Assembly (NCBI GenBank): GCA_965216785.1
Contig: OZ244197.1
Location: 1,920,001-1,984,000 of the forward strand
DNA from: Thermodesulfobacteriota bacterium
GTDB taxonomy: Bacteria; Desulfobacterota_D; UBA1144; Nemesobacterales; UBA2774
Length of the DNA: 64,000 bases
Direction: 5' to 3'
The notes under the pieces were generated by a model, which saw nothing but the letters and a program-made list of their open reading frames with translations, had not been told where the DNA came from and did no database searches. Position 1 is the first letter of the stretch; the number at the start of each line of letters is the position of its first letter. Of this stretch, positions 43,118 through 50,941 are shown piece after piece. The position numbers and the translations under genes were made by a program.

Positions 43118-43684
43118 AATCTGCTATAAAAAATAACTAAGAATAAGGGGGTTGTATAGGAGGAGATACTATTTAACGGGGTTTGGTGCTCAGTAAATAG
43201 AATTACACTATAGCTAATGCGTATTGTCAGGGTTTGTGAAACTCAAACATACGGGTTGCATCCACTCCCTTTTCTAAAGTATCTATAAAAATCTTGCTTC
43301 AAACAAACATTTGCAATCTCTTTCTAAACATCTTTCTCTTAATTTGCGACTTGTTGACAATGATATATGTGTAATATTATAATAAGTAATGACAGTAATA
43401 TAAGCAAAATATTGTAATTGATAAAGAGAGGCATATTTTGCAAAAGGCATTGGGGATTGAGGAGTTTTACCTTCCTGTAGTACGACAAGAGAAAATATCA
43501 GACGTCCCTGAAGGAATGTCCAAAATCCAGGGGTGTCCAAAATCACTGTATCGATTGCTTGGAGAATGCGAATATGACCCGAGGAGGGATGTTTGTGATG
43601 AAAAAGCAATTAATATCTCCCGACTGTAATTTTGAGGCACAAAAATCCGAAGAAGCTGTTTTTCAGGCTGTGAAAGGAGGCAGG

Positions 43685-46183
43685 ATGATGAGAGTATTGC
43701 AATCAAGTTTAGTACTAATAGGGTTGGTAGTTTTAATTTCGTTAATCGCTCCCGTAAATCTTAAGGCGCAGCCAGTTACTCTTGGCGTAGTGGCCGACAA
43801 TCAAACGCTGGTCCCCGGCGGCGGAGGCGGCGACTTCACGGACTTTAATAGTCCTGTTTTCCTCGGGGGTAACGATGTAGCGTTTAGAGGTTTTGGCGGT
43901 ACCGGGATGGAGGGTATATATACGACAATTTTGGGAGTGCCGACGTTAGTAGCCAATAAAAACACGCCGGTCCCCGGTGGGGGTGGAGGAAGCTTTACAG
44001 GCTTTGGTGATCCAGCCTCCCTGGGTGGTGGAGATGTAGCGTTTTTCGGTGAAGGCGGTACAGGAGTGAGTGGAATATATAAAACGGTAGGGGGAGTATT
44101 GATGTTGGTAGCCGATAGGAATACGCCGGTTCCCGGTGGTGGTGGAGGAAACTTTACAGACTTTAGCACTCCAGTCTCGCTGGGTGGTGGAGAGGTGGTG
44201 TTTGTCGGTCTCGGCGGCACAGGAGTCACAGGTATATATAAGACGGTAGGTGGAGTACTGACGTTAGTTGCGAATACAAACACGCTGGTTCCCGGCGGGG
44301 GTGGAGCAGGCTTTGTAAGCTTTGGTCTTCCCGTTTCCATAGGTGGTGGAGAGGTGGCGTTTCTTGCTAGTGGTGGTACAGGTATAGCTGGCATATATAA
44401 AACGGTAGGTGGAGTGCCGACGTTAGTCGCCGATAGGAACACGCCGGTCCCCGGCGGCGGAGGGGGAAGCTTTACAAGCCATCAGAAACTTATCTCTCTT
44501 GGTGGTGGAGAGGTAGCGTTTTTCGGTGAAGGTGGTACAGGAGCGAGCGGTATATATAAAACGGTAGGTGGAATACTGATGTTAGTAGCGGATGAAAACA
44601 CGCTTGCCCCCGGAGGTGACGGAGGGGGATTTAGATTCTTTGGTGGTCCGGTCTCCCTGGGTGGAAGCGATGTAGCGTTTTACAGCGGAGAAGGTGGTGC
44701 GGGAAGGGAAGGCATATTTAAAGAGGTGGGGGGAGTGCTGATGTTAGTAGCGAATGAAATCACGCCGGTCCCCGGCGGCGGAGGGGGAAGCTTTACAAGC
44801 TTTGGTGATCCGGTCTCCCTGGGCGGCAGTGAAGTAGCGTTTTTCGGTGAAGGCGGTGCGGGGGAGAGCGGTATATATAAAACTGTGGGGGGAGTGCCGA
44901 CGTTAATAGCCAATGAAAATACGTTAATCCCCGGCGGCGGAGGGACAAGCTTTACAGACTTTTTTACTCCCGTCTCCTTAGGGGGTGGTACTGTAGTGTT
45001 TAAAGGTGATGGTGTGGGGCTGACAGGTGTATATATCGCCGGTACGGGCTCGACGCTTAATGTAACCAAAACAGGTACGGGTACGGGGACCGTAACGAGC
45101 GTGCCTTTGGGAATAAACTGTGGTGCGGTCTGCAGCGAGGACTATGTTATAAACACCGTAGTTACCCTTACGGCCGTAGCCGGCGCGGGCTCTGTATTCG
45201 CAGGCTGGACCGGCGACCCTGACTGTACGGATGGTGTCGTTACTATGGATATGTCTATAACATGTACAGCGATTTTTGCTATGGAAGCGGATTTGTCTAT
45301 TGTTAAAACTGCAAGCCCAAACCCCGTGGAATTGGATAGCGAGCTTACATATACTATTGAGATAGAAAACTTAGGCCCGGACCCGGCTGTGGGGGTAGTG
45401 CTTACGGACATACTGCCCGGAGGGGTAATGTTCATATCCTCATCAGTAGTTTGTGATAATATGGACGGGACATTGACTTGCGAGCTAGAGGATATCGACA
45501 ATGGAGATACTACTACTGTAACTATAGTGGTAGTCCCGCCTGAGATTGGTGATATAACGAATAGCGCGACAGTAAGCGCCGAAACCCCCGACCCTAATAT
45601 GGATAACAATACCTCTACCATAATTACACAGGTCGAAGAGGATGTGCCGCAGATGCTGGACGTGGTGCTGGACCAGTCTGAGTTTACGGTGAACCCCGGA
45701 GGTATGGTAAGCATGGCGGTAGAAATTAGTAACCCTCCTTTACCCATAACGAGTTCGCTTACTCAGACAAAACAGACTGCAACAGGAGTAGTATTGACAA
45801 TTGACATTCCCGAAGGGTTTGACGTAGAGGATATAATTACAACACAAGGGGTGTGCGATATAGACCTGCGTCAATGTACAATCGGTGATATCATGCCCGG
45901 TGAGACCGTAACAGTGGTACTGGACGCTATTGCTCCACAAGGAGACGGAGTGTTTGTTGTAAGCTTCCGCGCCGGCACTTCGACGGGTCAGATGTTTTCG
46001 GGTACTGCTATTGTAACTGTTCGCGGTAGTGACGGTGGAGACGGTAACTGTGCTCTTGCTTCAAGTAATGCAGGAAAGCCTGAAATATTCGGACTACTTG
46101 CTCCGTTCGTTCTGCTGCCACTTATGATGCTGCTGAGAAGAAAGAGAAGAGGCAGGATTACAGCGCATACTGGCACAAAATGA
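43685..46183 (+). CDS. Surface protein: 8 x 53-aa Gly-rich propeller repeats, InlB-B-like repeat, DUF11-like domains, Cys-containing C-terminal sorting tail
   Basis: AGGAGG SD before MMRVLQ; 159-bp repeat period; ADLSIVKTASP..TYTIEIENLGP; tail GGDGNCAL...TM..RRKRR. Confidence 0.85.
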   Translation: MMRVLQSSLVLIGLVVLISLIAPVNLKAQPVTLGVVADNQTLVPGGGGGDFTDFNSPVFLGGNDVAFRGFGGTGMEGIYTTILGVPTLVANKNTPVPGGGGGSFTGFGDPASLGGGDVAFFGEGGTGVSGIYKTVGGVLMLVADRNTPVPGGGGGNFTDFSTPVSLGGGEVVFVGLGGTGVTGIYKTVGGVLTLVANTNTLVPGGGGAGFVSFGLPVSIGGGEVAFLASGGTGIAGIYKTVGGVPTLVADRNTPVPGGGGGSFTSHQKLISLGGGEVAFFGEGGTGASGIYKTVGGILMLVADENTLAPGGDGGGFRFFGGPVSLGGSDVAFYSGEGGAGREGIFKEVGGVLMLVANEITPVPGGGGGSFTSFGDPVSLGGSEVAFFGEGGAGESGIYKTVGGVPTLIANENTLIPGGGGTSFTDFFTPVSLGGGTVVFKGDGVGLTGVYIAGTGSTLNVTKTGTGTGTVTSVPLGINCGAVCSEDYVINTVVTLTAVAGAGSVFAGWTGDPDCTDGVVTMDMSITCTAIFAMEADLSIVKTASPNPVELDSELTYTIEIENLGPDPAVGVVLTDILPGGVMFISSSVVCDNMDGTLTCELEDIDNGDTTTVTIVVVPPEIGDITNSATVSAETPDPNMDNNTSTIITQVEEDVPQMLDVVLDQSEFTVNPGGMVSMAVEISNPPLPITSSLTQTKQTATGVVLTIDIPEGFDVEDIITTQGVCDIDLRQCTIGDIMPGETVTVVLDAIAPQGDGVFVVSFRAGTSTGQMFSGTAIVTVRGSDGGDGNCALASSNAGKPEIFGLLAPFVLLPLMMLLRRKRRGRITAHTGTK

Positions 46184-46211
46184 CTATTAAAATATAATAT
46201 TCCGGGAGCGC

Positions 46212-46415
46212 TTTCTACTTGGCCATTCCGCCGTAGCTAACAGGTCTTGTGTCCCCGAAGGTGTTTACGAGAGTGTCGAGGAATTCCTCTGTGTGCTCCT
46301 CGCAGAAATGATAGGTGAGTGTGTCCCTGCCGTCGCGGCTAGAGACAGTGATCTGCTCGTAGTGTCTTCCGCACAGGTCTTTTTGGCAAAGAGCGCAAGA
46401 CTTAATACCCTGACG
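46212..46415 (-). pseudogene. Displaced 3' fragment of the Cys/His protein gene at 48640-48924
   Basis: 204 bp matching 48637-48840 with 5 mismatches; in-frame TGA at 46434-46436 upstream and no in-frame start. Confidence 0.88.
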
Positions 46416-46440
46416 TTCACACCGCTTGAAATGTCATCCT

Positions 46441-47331
46441 TTAATTGTGGCCGTTTACGAAAATTTCCTCAATTACGCGCCCGTCTATGTCCGGGGGAGG
46501 TTTGAGACCGAGCGCGCGCAGCACCGTCGGAGCGGTATCGTATATATAGACCTGCTCTTTAACGGCGTAGTCTTTTTTGACGTACTTTCCTATTGCAAGC
46601 CAGGGTATTTGTATTGAATGCGGTATGTCGTCGCCGTGGTTTATGCCTTGGCCGCCGTGGTCGGATAATATCATAATAAACATAGCCTCATATATTCCCT
46701 CATCTTTCAAAGACGCTATTATCGTTCCCAGAGCTTTATCTACATCAGCTATGGAATTCAGATACTCAGGGGACATCCATCCCTTTACGTGCCCAGTGAG
46801 ATCGGGGTAGGGGAAATGGACCAGCGAGAGCCGGGGCTTATTCTCCTTCATATATGTTACGTAGCTTTTTGTTATCTCCCGGACGCTGTCCTCTGACTCA
46901 GAGGTTGATTCGTAATGCTCTGTAGTTCCCGGAGTGTTTATGTAAGAGAGCTTGTCTTTCCCTACGAAGAGCGCGGAATCGAGTCCGCTCTTTTTCGCTA
47001 CTGTAAATATGGTCTCAAACTCCGTATGCCCCAGGTCCGGAGAATATTTGTTTACCGTCATTCCGTGTTTTTTAGGTGTAAGCCCCGTAACGAGAGAAGT
47101 GTGCGAGGGCAGGGTTTTGGCGATCTCAACCGTTCTCGCGCTCGGCGTATAGGAACCCGTCTTTATTAGTGAATCGAGATTTGGGGTGTCTGCAAGTTCA
47201 ATCGCATCCGGTCTTAAGCCGTCGATAGTAATAATGAGAGCATAAGGAGCTTTGCTCTTAGCGGATGAGCATGCGGATATTAATATAAAGAGGATAAAGA
47301 TTATGGGGATTCTTACGCGCGAAATTTTCAT
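46441..47331 (-). CDS. Alkaline phosphatase superfamily lipoprotein (type I phosphodiesterase/nucleotide pyrophosphatase)
   Basis: Lipobox ISAC; ITIDGLRPD, TLPSH..TG, PDLTGH..GW, SDHGG, DTAPT. Confidence 0.9.
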   Translation of the reverse strand: MKISRVRIPIIFILFILISACSSAKSKAPYALIITIDGLRPDAIELADTPNLDSLIKTGSYTPSARTVEIAKTLPSHTSLVTGLTPKKHGMTVNKYSPDLGHTEFETIFTVAKKSGLDSALFVGKDKLSYINTPGTTEHYESTSESEDSVREITKSYVTYMKENKPRLSLVHFPYPDLTGHVKGWMSPEYLNSIADVDKALGTIIASLKDEGIYEAMFIMILSDHGGQGINHGDDIPHSIQIPWLAIGKYVKKDYAVKEQVYIYDTAPTVLRALGLKPPPDIDGRVIEEIFVNGHN

Positions 47332-47442
47332 TAACAGAGTTCTGCTGCTTCCCTTATGCTAAGCTCGGTTTAAGTCTGAATTATGAAGAACGCAATTCAT
47401 AATTGATATTCTAATAATGTGGTCAAATGCTGCCCATTTCAA

Positions 47443-47484
47443 CTGCTCAGCAGAAATCGGTATGGCGGAATTTCTGCTGAGCAG
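47443..47484. terminator. Inverted-repeat hairpin downstream of the 47545-48171 gene
   Basis: ctgctcagcagaaat...atttctgctgagcag. Confidence 0.6.
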
Positions 47485-47544
47485 GATTATGGTTTATCGG
47501 AGTGAGAATAAATTTACTCACATTGTTCAGCATAAAGATTTACA

Positions 47545-48171
47545 TTAAGGCGTACTTACAGATACCGCCATTGCCTCAGTGTAGGTAACCAGTACCTTCT
47601 CGCCGGGTTTTAAATTCTCCATAGTGCTGACGCTAGGATCAACCTTAACTCTCGCAACCTGTTTGCCGGGAGCCTTGTACTTAAGCATATTGGTAGCTCT
47701 ATCTATGCCTATTACCTCGACTACTTCAGAAACTATCTCGATATCGATTTTGCCCGGTTTATCGGAATCTTCGACCATTACTGTCATCCCCTGAGTATCA
47801 AGCGGTTCTGCATCCGGAGCAGCTACCTGAAGCGCGAGCGATTCGTAAAATCCAATTGTGACCTTATCGCCGATAGCTAACTTGTCGAAGTTAGGAACAT
47901 CGTCATCCACCTCAACTACGTCGACTAAATTGCCGTCCGCATCAGCAAGAACGACAAGACGCTCATTCATATTAAGAGCCTGAATATAAAGCGTCTCTAC
48001 TGCGATGCCTTTTAAAACAATTTTTCTATCACCCTTTTCGAGCATCATAGTCTTGCCTGTATTTCCAGGCTGCTCAAGCATCTCCTTCGCGCCATCATCC
48101 TGAGCAAAAGACCCTGTCGAAAAAGACACAAACGCAAAAGCTAATACCGAAAATAAAAATAATCTCTTCAT
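47545..48171 (-). CDS. Hypothetical periplasmic protein with two OB-fold-like repeats
   Basis: Signal peptide ending SFA; FDKLAIGDKVTIGFYESLA and MENLKPGEKVLVTYTEAMA. Confidence 0.75.
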   Translation of the reverse strand: MKRLFLFSVLAFAFVSFSTGSFAQDDGAKEMLEQPGNTGKTMMLEKGDRKIVLKGIAVETLYIQALNMNERLVVLADADGNLVDVVEVDDDVPNFDKLAIGDKVTIGFYESLALQVAAPDAEPLDTQGMTVMVEDSDKPGKIDIEIVSEVVEVIGIDRATNMLKYKAPGKQVARVKVDPSVSTMENLKPGEKVLVTYTEAMAVSVSTP

Positions 48172-48639
48172 AACAATACCTCCTTGGGATTTTTTAAATC
48201 TTTAATTCAAACTGCTTTAGATCCCCGCCATTTTCTAATTAAAGACTGAACAAATGTCACAGCACAATACAGTATTAGCGGCTGGTGTTATAAACCGCCC
48301 TGCCAATTATGTGCTGAGTTCAATTGTTACTACGCTATCTAATGTGAATCAATGTCGCCATCTATTGTATGTTATTGTCCTTTAGATATGTTTGAATGCG
48401 GATTAATCTAAAGGTGACCCATACAAAACCCATATAAAGCTTAGCATATATAAAAAGTTATCCTAACGTATTTTTGCAAACTAAAAATTTGTGGGAAATC
48501 GGGTATATGATGTATGTCAGGCGGAGATTAGAAAACCTTCTAATCTCCGGAGCTTCAAGCTTTCTTTCCTTATGGCTTTTACTGTAATTGTACTAGATTA
48601 ATTCTAGCGGCTTCTTATTGAGTGGCAGTATAGAGTTTT

Positions 48640-48924
48640 CTACTTGGCCATTCCGCCGTAGCTAACCGGTCTTGTGTCCCCGAAGGTGTTTACGAGAGTG
48701 TCGAGGAATTCCTCAGTGTGCTCCTCGCAGAAATGATAGGTGAGCGTGTCCCTGCCGCCGCGGCTAGAGACAGTGATCTGCTCGTAGTGTCTTCCGCACA
48801 GGTCTTTTTGGCAAAGAGCGCATGACTTAATACCCTGACGCTCTCCTTCGCTCTCGCAGCGGGTGCCGTCTTCGTGAACGTGATCGCACTGGTACATCTC
48901 TACAGTTATTGTTTTTACGGACAT
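48640..48924 (-). CDS. Small Cys/His-rich putative zinc-finger protein, paralogue 1
   Basis: C-x9-C-x11-C-x2-C-x4-C-x2-H-x19-C-x2-H; GGAGG SD. Confidence 0.85.
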   Translation of the reverse strand: MSVKTITVEMYQCDHVHEDGTRCESEGERQGIKSCALCQKDLCGRHYEQITVSSRGGRDTLTYHFCEEHTEEFLDTLVNTFGDTRPVSYGGMAK

Positions 48925-48990
48925 TGAAATCCTCCCAGCTTAAATATTAATTCTCTGTATCTGATAATACTGAACGCCAGCCCCACATTA

Positions 48991-49023
48991 CTATTAAACT
49001 AAATACTCCCTTATAAGTCAATA
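48991..49023 (-). promoter_or_regulatory. Conserved sigma70-type promoter of paralogue 1
   Basis: TTGACT-17-TTTAAT within ATTTAGTTTAATAG. Confidence 0.75.
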
Positions 49024-49050
49024 TATTTTAGATGCCGGTTTTTATGGTGG

Positions 49051-49383
49051 TTATGACGCCAGATATGTGCCGTCTCCGATGCCGGGGATTACCTCGCCCT
49101 CGCCGTAGCGGTCTACTACTATGTTCCTAAACTCCTGGTAATGCTCCTCACAGAAATAGTAGAGGAACCTGACCCTGTTGCCCCGGAGGAGGTTGTTTGA
49201 GATATTGTCGCCGTCCCCAATGAAGACGACAGTCGTAATCTCGCAGTGCTCCTTACACAGGTCCTGGCGGCATACGTGGCATTCTCTCATCTCTTCTCTG
49301 TTGCCCTCGTTCACGCAGCGCTCGCCCTGGCCGTTTTCATGGTCACACTGATAAACTTCAAGCTCAATCTCTCTTTTTGACAT
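49051..49383 (-). CDS. Small Cys/His-rich putative zinc-finger protein, paralogue 2
   Basis: Same ligand spacing with a longer loop (x31) before FCEEH. Confidence 0.85.
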   Translation of the reverse strand: MSKREIELEVYQCDHENGQGERCVNEGNREEMRECHVCRQDLCKEHCEITTVVFIGDGDNISNNLLRGNRVRFLYYFCEEHYQEFRNIVVDRYGEGEVIPGIGDGTYLAS

Positions 49384-49422
49384 TAGACCCCTGCGCTGTC
49401 TCTCAAGTGGTATATTTTTATT

Positions 49423-49455
49423 CTATTAAACTAAATCGGGAGATGTATGTCAATA
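49423..49455 (-). promoter_or_regulatory. Conserved sigma70-type promoter of paralogue 2
   Basis: TTGACA-17-TTTAAT within ATTTAGTTTAATAG. Confidence 0.75.
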
Positions 49456-49481
49456 AGGTTTTTAAGGTATGTAGCTGACTG

Positions 49482-49781
49482 TTACCATCTGCTGAGCGTA
49501 ACCCCATACCCGCTCTGGGGCACGGGGCTCGTGTCGCCGAACTTATCTATAAGGATCTGTCTGAACTCGTCTGTGTGCTCTTCGCAGAAGTAATATGTGA
49601 AGTGCTCTCTGGTGCCGCTGATGGTGACTGTCGAGAGCTCGTAGTGGGTGATGCAGATATCGTTCCCGCACACCCCGCACACCTTGATCGCCTCGCGGTC
49701 GCCTCTGCTCCGGCACTGCTCGCCGTCCTCGCCCACGTGGTCGCACTCGAATATCTCTAGCTCTATTTCCCTTTTGGACAT
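49482..49781 (-). CDS. Small Cys/His-rich putative zinc-finger protein, paralogue 3
   Basis: MSKREIELE..CDH..C..CGVC..ICITH..YYFCEEH. Confidence 0.85.
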   Translation of the reverse strand: MSKREIELEIFECDHVGEDGEQCRSRGDREAIKVCGVCGNDICITHYELSTVTISGTREHFTYYFCEEHTDEFRQILIDKFGDTSPVPQSGYGVTLSRW

Positions 49782-49788
49782 GTAACCA

Positions 49789-49822
49789 CTATTAAACTAT
49801 AAATGGGGCGGGGAAGTCAATA
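49789..49822 (-). promoter_or_regulatory. Conserved promoter of paralogue 3 (near-leaderless)
   Basis: TTGACT-18-TTTAAT, 9 nt before ATG, no SD. Confidence 0.7.
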
Positions 49823-49855
49823 AGGACTATGGTTCAGTATGCGTGATGAGTGATA

Positions 49856-49886
49856 TGGATTCCCGATAAATACGCTCGGGAATGAC
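49856..49886. repeat. REP-like hairpin GGATTCCCG...CGGGAATGAC
   Basis: tggattcccgataaatacgctcgggaatgac. Confidence 0.6.
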
Positions 49887-49978
49887 AGGCTATTACAGGC
49901 CTACAGTGAACGATTTTCTTACAGTTTATTAAACAGTCAACTTGAAAAACCGGCTCACGTTATGTATAAATAACGCTA

Positions 49979-50941
49979 ATGATTTCACCTCAGGAAAGCT
50001 TAAAGGGCGCGATAAAGTACTTTCATACAAGAGCAACGGGAAGTCCAAAGCTCGTTAACCTCGAGATTACGAAGCTCTGTAACGCAAAGTGCGATTTCTG
50101 CGACTACTGGCAGACACGCCACGAAGAGAGGATCTACGACTACCGCCCTGTGATTAAGAAGATCGACCCACTCGTTGCGGTCATCACCGGCGGAGAGCCT
50201 ATGCTCCGTAAAGACCTTCCCGATATCGTAAGGCAGATTAAGGAATGCTCTTACTTCATCTTCACCTCGATGGTTACGAAGGGAGACCTGCTTACTGTTG
50301 AAAAGGCGGACGAGCTGTTCGACGCGGGTATTAACCAGATTGCGGTATCGCTCGATTTCCCTAGTAAACAGCACGACGTTTACCGCGGAGTGCCGGGGCT
50401 GTGGGACAAGCTGTCCACGATCCTCCCCGAGCTCGGCAGGAAATATCCTGATAATCAGATCACCATGAATACTATTATTATGGAGGACAACCTTGAGTAC
50501 ATCCCCGAGCTTGTGCGCCACGCCCACGATTGGGGAATAGGGATTTCCTTCAGCTCGTATTCCGTAATGAAGACCAATAACGAAGATCACTTTATCGAGG
50601 AAAACGAGAAGGTCAGGAATCTGGTAGCGGAGCTCGTGAGCCTCAGGCGTGAGCTTAAGGGCACTATCATATCGACCGAGTATTACCTGAACGAGATACC
50701 ACGCTACTTTGAGTCGGGAGGCATTCCGGGCTGTACGGCGGGTATAAGCCACATACAGGTGACCCCGAGCGGACACTTGAAACGCTGCTCGGAGATGCCC
50801 GTGACCGCGCATTTCTCCGAATACCATCCAAAGCTCTACGACGAGACAAACTGCACGGCGTGCTGGTACAGTTGCAGGGGCGAAACTCAGACCCCGGCGA
50901 GTATCAAGCGCGCTCTTGAGTATATGGGTATCTGGGTTTAA
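49979..50941 (+). CDS. Radical SAM protein with C-terminal SPASM/twitch-like domain
   Basis: CNAKCDFC, ITGGEP, VSLD; CTAG..VTPSG..RC and CTACWYSC. Confidence 0.92.
   Translation: MISPQESLKGAIKYFHTRATGSPKLVNLEITKLCNAKCDFCDYWQTRHEERIYDYRPVIKKIDPLVAVITGGEPMLRKDLPDIVRQIKECSYFIFTSMVTKGDLLTVEKADELFDAGINQIAVSLDFPSKQHDVYRGVPGLWDKLSTILPELGRKYPDNQITMNTIIMEDNLEYIPELVRHAHDWGIGISFSSYSVMKTNNEDHFIEENEKVRNLVAELVSLRRELKGTIISTEYYLNEIPRYFESGGIPGCTAGISHIQVTPSGHLKRCSEMPVTAHFSEYHPKLYDETNCTACWYSCRGETQTPASIKRALEYMGIWV

Follow-up and report, generated by a model that had tools for sequence, protein, structure and literature searches.

Three small genes rich in Cys and His codons lie side by side in the DNA that we analysed, a window of 64,000 nt (G000:C1:1920001-1984000) from a 3.12 Mb single-contig, 92%-complete genome. 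The locus raises three connected questions: to which protein family and fold the products belong, what reads the promoter-like element that precedes each gene, and what the proteins do. The original prediction described three paralogues of 94-110 aa with a common ligand pattern, and our analysis bears this out: A, B and C are intact minus-strand ORFs (Table 1) with pairwise identities of 37-51%, and their spacing is C13-x9-C-x11-C-x2-C-x4-C-x2-H-x19-C-x2-H in A and C, with x31 in place of x19 in B. The proteins do not end in FCEEH, as had been supposed, since 25-29 residues come after this motif, whose two glutamates are retained in only 23/71 and 24/71 homologues. Nor can the genes be called monocistronic: a terminator scan of positions 48200-50000 gave no terminator-like site (the hairpin downstream of A was not called), and read-through from C through B into A is therefore possible. 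No Rfam match was found within 46000-50200.

Table 1. Features of the array and its surroundings (positions are those of the window).
Feature	Position	Strand	Description
Paralogue A	48640..48924	-	94 aa; order-wide subfamily; ends in conserved GMAK tail
Paralogue B	49051..49383	-	110 aa; 12-residue insertion, long beta-hairpin tip
Paralogue C	49482..49781	-	99 aa; start codon 9 nt past the -10-like hexamer
Fourth copy, 5'-truncated	46215..46418	-	residues 28-94 of A; without start codon
Element of A	48993..49021	-	TTGACT-17-TTTAAT, ATTTAG directly before the -10
Element of B	49425..49453	-	TTGACA-17-TTTAAT with ATTTAG
Element of C	49791..49820	-	18-nt spacer
12-bp hairpin	48522..48549		about 90 nt 3' of A; possible terminator without U-run
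Radical SAM gene	49979..50941	+	divergent conserved neighbour; context, not part of the system

A fourth copy, which the original prediction had overlooked, sits 2.2 kb from the array, just past a gene of the alkaline phosphatase family. It has lost the first two ligands and differs from A at 6 bases, 5 of the differences being synonymous, as expected of a once-functional copy. Its presence is backed by a 155-nt shared unitig at about double depth in read set X1, which may be the source sample, and by contigs of read set X5 that span the stretch. Inserted between the truncated copy and nnr is a gene (43559-46183) whose 874-aa product is exported, contains Gly-rich tandem repeats (DUF7453) as well as DUF11, and has a membrane anchor at its C-terminus. 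On the other side of the array, a 33-nt REP-like inverted repeat is located at 49855-49887 (6 matches in the genome with up to 6 mismatches), and a related strain (run X5) carries 1109 different letters between 49822 and 49905.

The finger family is present in 31/41 relatives and in 85/120 genomes of the phylum. Counted by taxonomic family (our labels f1-f9), it occurs in f8 (37/37), f1 (26/32), f7 (13/15), f2 (3/5), f4 (2/2), f5 (2/2) and f3 (1/1), and is absent from f6 (0/6) and f9 (0/19), both of which have streamlined genomes of 0.8-1.6 Mb. Copy number is one in the six families outside f1, and f1 genomes, in which the finger has expanded into four stable subfamilies, contain 1-7 matches each. 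The usual gene order is cysS, a divergent radical SAM gene, the finger array, often a phosphatase gene, and then what we take, from the appearance of the sequences, to be nnr, tsaE, an aspartokinase gene and a citramalate-synthase-like gene. In all seven loci read from the finger-less families (3 of f6 and 4 of f9), the radical SAM gene directly adjoins nnr with no finger between them, which indicates that the absence is real at this locus. The radical SAM gene itself is kept in 112/120 genomes of the phylum, those of 1 Mb included, and is thus independent of the finger. Its product in the window falls under the cut-off for every NCBIfam model listed (best, TIGR03961) and is an unassigned core enzyme. 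Rather than a local module, the finger is near-core in the order and sits at a housekeeping locus.

The sources of the close homologues are named as Candidatus Dadabacteria or Thermodesulfobacteriota. A profile search of 1.84 billion representatives gave 23 matches: (i) 9 family members or fragments of them, (ii) 5 distant stand-alone singletons from beyond the phylum (P0061, P0064, P0068, P0070 and P0072; E 7e-7 to 4e-4), which share a similar layout with the family, (iii) one further fragment-like sequence and (iv) 8 long multi-repeat proteins, of which two were read and judged to be chance Cys-rich matches. The search with a profile from a widened alignment added no distant relative, no fused form was seen among 4104 longer candidates (a weak test), and no relative was detected in annotated phages or, using A, P0064 and P0068 as queries, in IMG/VR. 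The three window proteins have no above-cut-off match in Pfam, NCBIfam or PHROGs, in keeping with the original view of an undescribed bacterial family, and a literature search on Dadabacteria zinc fingers and DUF2180 found no description of it.

We aligned 71 sequences, comprising 12 of the 51 homologue proteins and the copies taken from genomes (omitting 3 partial ORFs and 2 near-duplicates of A). A quick tree, based on 97 columns only, distinguished subfamilies A (30 sequences), B (9) and D (8) and a looser group C (24); A, B and D are each separated from the rest by a branch with a support of 99. The median dN/dS is 0.10-0.22, calculated from unsaturated pairs only (27/351, 3/10, 28/171 and 4/28). 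The description of the module as diversified, if taken to mean fast change, is not upheld, as there are instead four old subfamilies under purifying selection.

Eight putative ligands (C13, C23, C35, C38, C43, H46, C66 and H69; C6H2) are invariant in 71/71 sequences, together with D14, D41 and G82, which confirms the expected ligand conservation in homologues. The last pair, C-x2-H, comes after 19-36 residues across the family. Members of B and D carry an insertion of 12-17 residues at the hairpin tip, and the tails are conserved inside each subfamily. The proteins are acidic (mean net charge -2.5 to -5.9) and stop 12-17 residues past G82/G94. The AlphaFold models of A and B (pLDDT 81.0 and 76.6, with low values of 59-66 in the insertion of B) consist of a long hairpin in addition to short ones, a helix and a tail of low confidence; as monomers, they leave residues 1-10 without a partner strand.

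The two models were compared with 48,161 chains, and 50 rows were considered for each. A RIM zinc finger was the top match of both A (Z 5.8, rmsd 2.7, 54 residues aligned) and B (Z 4.9, rmsd 2.4, 54 residues aligned), followed in each case by FYVE-type fingers and the Lsr2 dimerisation domain. The FYVE-type cross-braced fingers cover about residues 10-75/86 of the models. Every Z-score is below 8, a range that, according to the tool, may reflect merely a common arrangement, so these matches place the fold and not the ancestry. Foldseek searches of the PDB and of a viral library gave nothing at E <= 0.001 (many rows of ribosomal eS21 were dropped, with an rmsd near 10), and a PDB sequence search produced two chance-level matches. 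The models of A and B predict a cross-braced two-zinc fold, as had been proposed, and more precisely a treble clef closest to the RIM/FYVE-type fingers. C13/C23/C43/H46 and C35/C38/C66/H69 are the two predicted structural zinc sites, their pairing being derived from the fit to FYVE-type fingers. Cross-braced binuclear clefs are described in PMC4999995, where the second site of FYVE/PHD fingers is said to resemble a treble clef.

The best structural matches of both models are the FYVE-related fingers (RIM 2CJS_C/2A20, rabphilin, Slp4 and FYVE domains). FYVE fingers have eight ligands spaced x11-12/x2/x4/x2/long, with the last pair starting the C-terminal helix, and our family shares both the spacing and the position of the last pair at the start of this helix. 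It differs in its first knuckle (C-x9-C), two His ligands, longer hairpin, extra N-terminal strand and tail, and in being a stand-alone bacterial protein of 9-20% identity to these fingers. FYVE domains proper bind PI3P through a basic R(R/K)HHCR pocket; this pocket is missing from every subfamily consensus, and the proteins are acidic.

The AN1/B-box assignment made in the original prediction is not supported, since the last pair and the spacing differ and RIM/FYVE-type fingers fit better. AN1 (PF01428; Cuz1 5IJ4) and the finger are both C6H2, both cross-braced (for the finger, as modelled), and begin with the same six ligands, CC-CC-CH; PMC5035049 gives AN1 as CC-CC-CH-HC with five residues between its two His. 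In our family, the ligands run CC-CC-CH-CH and the last pair is preceded by a long hairpin, whereas AN1 ends in HC, so that the AN1 label fails. The AN1 scores in the fold search (Z 2.4-3.3) lie under those of RIM/FYVE, and PF01428 matched 1/71 members (E 0.045) and 0/3 window proteins. The B-box (PF00643, PF25287; TRIM25) shares with the finger the local core C-x2-C-x4-C-x2-H. Its matches are weak (PF00643 in 1/71 members, best E 0.073; PF25287 in 6/71, best E 0.005; TRIM25 in the PDB sequence search at E 5.8) and none is significant; no B-box domain appears among the matches listed in the fold searches of A and B, and the finger has no B-box-style RING or coiled-coil context.

The nearest sequence family is DUF2180 (PF09947), which is itself uncharacterised. 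It matched 33/71 members at E <= 0.1 (best 5.7e-5) across profile positions 6-34 of 68 only, and among named Atlas clusters, too, it is the nearest (score 0.89-0.90, with the family on 37% of members). Among the window proteins, C reaches 16.4 bits against a cut-off of 22.2, and A and B have no match; the best member, at about 24 bits (estimated from its E-value), may just pass the cut-off.

The sequence TTGAC-N17/18-TTTAAT, reported upstream of each gene, was found at all three, shared and conserved, and the genome-wide motif scan counted four occurrences of TAGTTTAATAG in the 3.1 Mb genome, three at the array. The accompanying claim that the rest of the intergenic DNA is unrelated holds for A and C but not for the other pairs: with the motif masked, the similarity of A to B exceeded 300/300 shuffles and that of B to C 297/300, and 61/300 shuffles scored as high as A against C. 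The consensus of the element is ATATTGAC(T/A)TA-N8-RATTTAGTTTAAT, often with an A-tract upstream. Its -35 is canonical; the -10 has no A at the second position and almost always carries T at -11, and because this A is missing a standard sigma-70 scan does not call the sites. The element precedes 54/73 finger copies with enough upstream DNA (one copy with 48 nt was left out) against 8/2701 of the genome's own ORFs of at least 100 aa (B included), a comparison that is partly circular because the motif was derived from the same upstream regions. By family, it was found before 44/51 copies in f1, 7/11 in f7, 2/2 in f5 and 1/1 in f3, and is absent from the copies examined in f8 (0/4), f2 (0/2) and f4 (0/2). 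The pattern with one mismatch occurs in 45/120 genomes, versus 12 for the reversed control. In G043, the element was relocated along with the finger gene. Dispersed copies of the D type located off the array (G003:C1:2911, G018:C14:84462 and G018:C12:18814, the last of which is frameshifted) lack it.

A weight matrix trained without this genome ranked B (38.7) and A (35.5) well above the next site (18.5) and thus uncovered nothing else strong in it; C was left unscored because of its 18-nt spacer. Across the genome, TAnnAT peaks 17 nt from TTGAC-like hexamers (52, versus 8-24 outside 16-18 nt), and TTWAAT has no peak at this distance and is not enriched, which indicates that the -10 of the element is not the housekeeping form. 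ATTTAG is missing from the generic promoters of this genome. A Shine-Dalgarno-like site is present in all 41 rows of the A type, and 8 C copies start 8-10 nt past the -10 with no such site. The C gene of the window is predicted from its sequence to be near-leaderless, again with no Shine-Dalgarno-like site; with this difference between A and C, the paralogues would share induction and differ in translation.

Apart from the fingers, the element stands before an aldehyde dehydrogenase/mutase operon, a gene for an MFS transporter and one for a secreted protein. The first of these operons encodes an aldehyde dehydrogenase (or acyl-CoA dehydrogenase) together with a methylmalonyl-CoA-mutase-like protein; it is preceded by the element in f7 and f4 (G047:C19:75822, G041:C5:12926, G049:C50:31891, G036:C5:46647 and G033:C27:31459) and not in this genome. 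The promoter of the MFS transporter (G000:C1:245124, L074; also in G004, G005 and G040) has ATTTAG before a canonical TAGGAT, and stands upstream of an ammonium-transporter-like gene.

How the element is read may be explained in two ways. To the first, that it is an ordinary RpoD promoter, weak at -11 and controlled by a transcription factor acting on the conserved flanks, we give slightly less than an even chance. The canonical -35, the very few sites per genome, the pairing of the same ATTTAG with canonical TAGGAT at the MFS transporter promoter of four genomes and the weak imperfect dyad formed by the two blocks argue for such control. However, the spacer varies freely, the dyad is broken in common variants, and the distribution of the one candidate factor examined, the mutase operon's TetR, does not match that of the element (TetR was not found in G008, G030, G036, G026 and G049, and is present in G040, G051 and G038). 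Since TTWAAT is not enriched, a sigma regulon fits no better, and perhaps less well, than a gene-specific operator.

More tentatively, the element may be recognised by two RpoD-like sigma factors specific to the lineage (G000:C1:712285-713487 and 2322817-2324157), or by only one of them. The genome contains 25 sigma-70 region-2 matches, including RpoD and ten RpoD-like proteins of 369-447 aa (the two candidates and, for example, 1131723-1132901 of the same contig), and genomes of the phylum have between 2 and 12 RpoD-like matches each; a literature search on sigma factors of Dadabacteria/Desulfobacterota_D turned up no account of such an expansion. These RpoD-like proteins retain the RpoD region-4 motif, which reads the -35, and are altered in region 2.4/3.0, the part of a sigma factor that reads the -10 and the bases just upstream of it. 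The two candidates represent related orthogroups, which occur in nearly all f1, f7, f3 and f5 genomes and were not found in f8 (0/37), f2 (0/5) or f6; the fingers examined in f8 and f2 are those that lack the element. In each genome checked that carries the element, one or both of the candidates are present, as in the reduced, single-contig G008, which retains the element and one of the two, although this correlation reflects about two or three independent losses and chosen E-value thresholds and is confounded with genome reduction. Two genomes are discordant: G040 has one of the two sigmas and no element, and G027 has a fragment of one of them, while its sole element is degenerate and lies some 580 nt upstream. 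A borderline match to the candidates is also present in 14/19 genomes of f9, which have no finger.

As to function, we consider the chances about even that the fingers are old, conserved two-zinc treble clefs that bind a partner protein and are likely co-expressed from the shared non-canonical promoter. Each would consist of the two predicted zinc sites, the long beta-hairpin and the C-terminal helix, followed by a flexible tail. The hairpin and tail, which are conserved within a subfamily, would set the partner specificity, and the three copies would then be specificity variants under one signal; we infer this from the acidic, single-domain character of the proteins and from subfamilies that differ mainly at the hairpin tip and tail. 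A small acidic single-domain clef of this kind most likely binds protein, and a precedent is the anti-sigma factor CsfB (Gin; 5N7Y), presented in PMC5890618 as a stand-alone treble clef that acts by protein binding and inhibits sigma factors. Both are small stand-alone bacterial treble clefs, the finger by prediction (Z 2.9 in the fold search), but CsfB has one zinc, is about half the size of the finger and binds sporulation sigmas, so that the analogy is functional only.

Two other functions are each rather unlikely. In the first, the N-terminal strand, hairpin, helix and tail would form homo- or hetero-dimers and chains by Lsr2-like self-association, and the paralogues would mix to tune the assembly. 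The Lsr2 dimerisation domain (4E1P/4E1R, PF11774) aligns over its whole length with the models, N-terminal strand and tail included (A, 56/56 residues spanning 8-89, Z 4.2, rmsd 3.5; B, 55/56 residues spanning 8-100, Z 4.0, rmsd 2.6), and so takes in the ends left out by the FYVE-type matches; residues 1-10 would supply the unpaired strand. A phage Lsr2-like protein ranks 6th in the viral library (E 0.021, 92 columns), and the Lsr2 N-terminal domain is a treble clef, some homologues of which retain zinc ligands (PMC4999995). Nevertheless, a Z of about 4 is in the range of common arrangements, the identity is 5-7%, and Pfam Lsr2 was matched at E <= 0.1 by 0/71 members. Lsr2-N has one clef without zinc, in contrast to the two predicted zinc sites of the finger, which also lacks the C-terminal AT-hook-like DNA-binding domain of Lsr2; no Lsr2, Lsr2 DNA-binding (PF23359) or H-NS domain was detected in the 92%-complete genome.

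The second, of similar standing, is a redox or zinc sensor or buffer, in which a labile zinc site would allow oxidation or a change in metal to switch the protein. Six Cys and two His are invariant within about 95 residues, a conserved upstream element of its own would suit a gene induced by stress, and the zinc sites of some treble clefs are reactive (PMC4999995). On the other hand, the conserved neighbours include no metal transporter, thioredoxin or metal regulator, and the other carriers of the element, listed above, do not point to such a role. Metallothioneins have a ligand density far above that of the finger, and the MerR-type palindrome, seen at the mer-like operon of this genome, is absent from the variable spacer. 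In the latter operon (G000:C1:1198817-1202096), two tandem genes for what appear, from their sequences, to be MerR-like regulators are accompanied by presumed merT- and merB-like genes and by a palindromic promoter of the MerR type.

Within the protein-binding function, our best single guess at the partner is the transcription apparatus, with the finger as a CsfB-like feedback inhibitor of an RpoD-like sigma, a guess by analogy that is nonetheless unlikely to be correct. In the full loop, transcription of the finger genes would depend on an alternative sigma, whose class of promoters would combine a normal -35 with an altered -10 (ATTTAG-TTTAAT). The resulting proteins, dimerising with themselves and with one another and bearing hairpins and tails particular to each subfamily, would in turn act back on the expanded RpoD-like sigmas; this scheme is equally doubtful. 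The number of fingers does not follow that of the sigmas (in f7, one finger and 6-12 RpoD-like sigmas), which weakens a model of one finger per sigma, and no sigma gene adjoins a finger at the loci examined. A universal alternative sigma was rejected as an obligate partner, being present in the finger-less f6 and f9.

We regard an AN1-like adaptor of protein degradation as very unlikely: the first six ligands (CC-CC-CH) are as in AN1, the AN1 of Cuz1 was retrieved at Z 2.4-2.8 and ClpX/ClpG-type zinc domains share the clef, but the last pair, C-x2-H after 19-36 residues, contrasts with the close H..C of AN1, the genome has no Pup ligase and one proteasome-family gene only (a 179-aa frame, HslV-sized, its identity presumed), there are no protease neighbours, and clpP was discarded as a regulon member since its upstream region is without the element here. 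That the finger is a peptide substrate of the divergent radical SAM enzyme, a reading that falls under the enzyme-substrate option of the original prediction, is scarcely credible, for although most genomes examined have the two genes in head-to-head arrangement, the enzyme is retained in 6/6 f6 and 18/19 f9 genomes, all finger-less, the finger has been relocated away from it in several f7 genomes, and the enzyme is under the cut-off for all peptide-maturase models among the matches listed.

The fingers, for which we prefer binding to a partner protein, are lineage-restricted proteins of inferred function and a lineage-wide variant of a known fold group. If they do feed back on the transcription apparatus, they would represent a new class of anti-sigma factors, directed against group-2-like sigmas, and would show, as stand-alone proteins of bacteria, a fold that is otherwise known mainly from eukaryotic adaptors. 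The family has no name, is near-core in an uncultured bacterial order and is predicted to adopt a FYVE/RIM-like two-zinc fold without any further domain, and the element, conserved across four families, offers a handle on which of the unstudied RpoD-like sigmas reads what.
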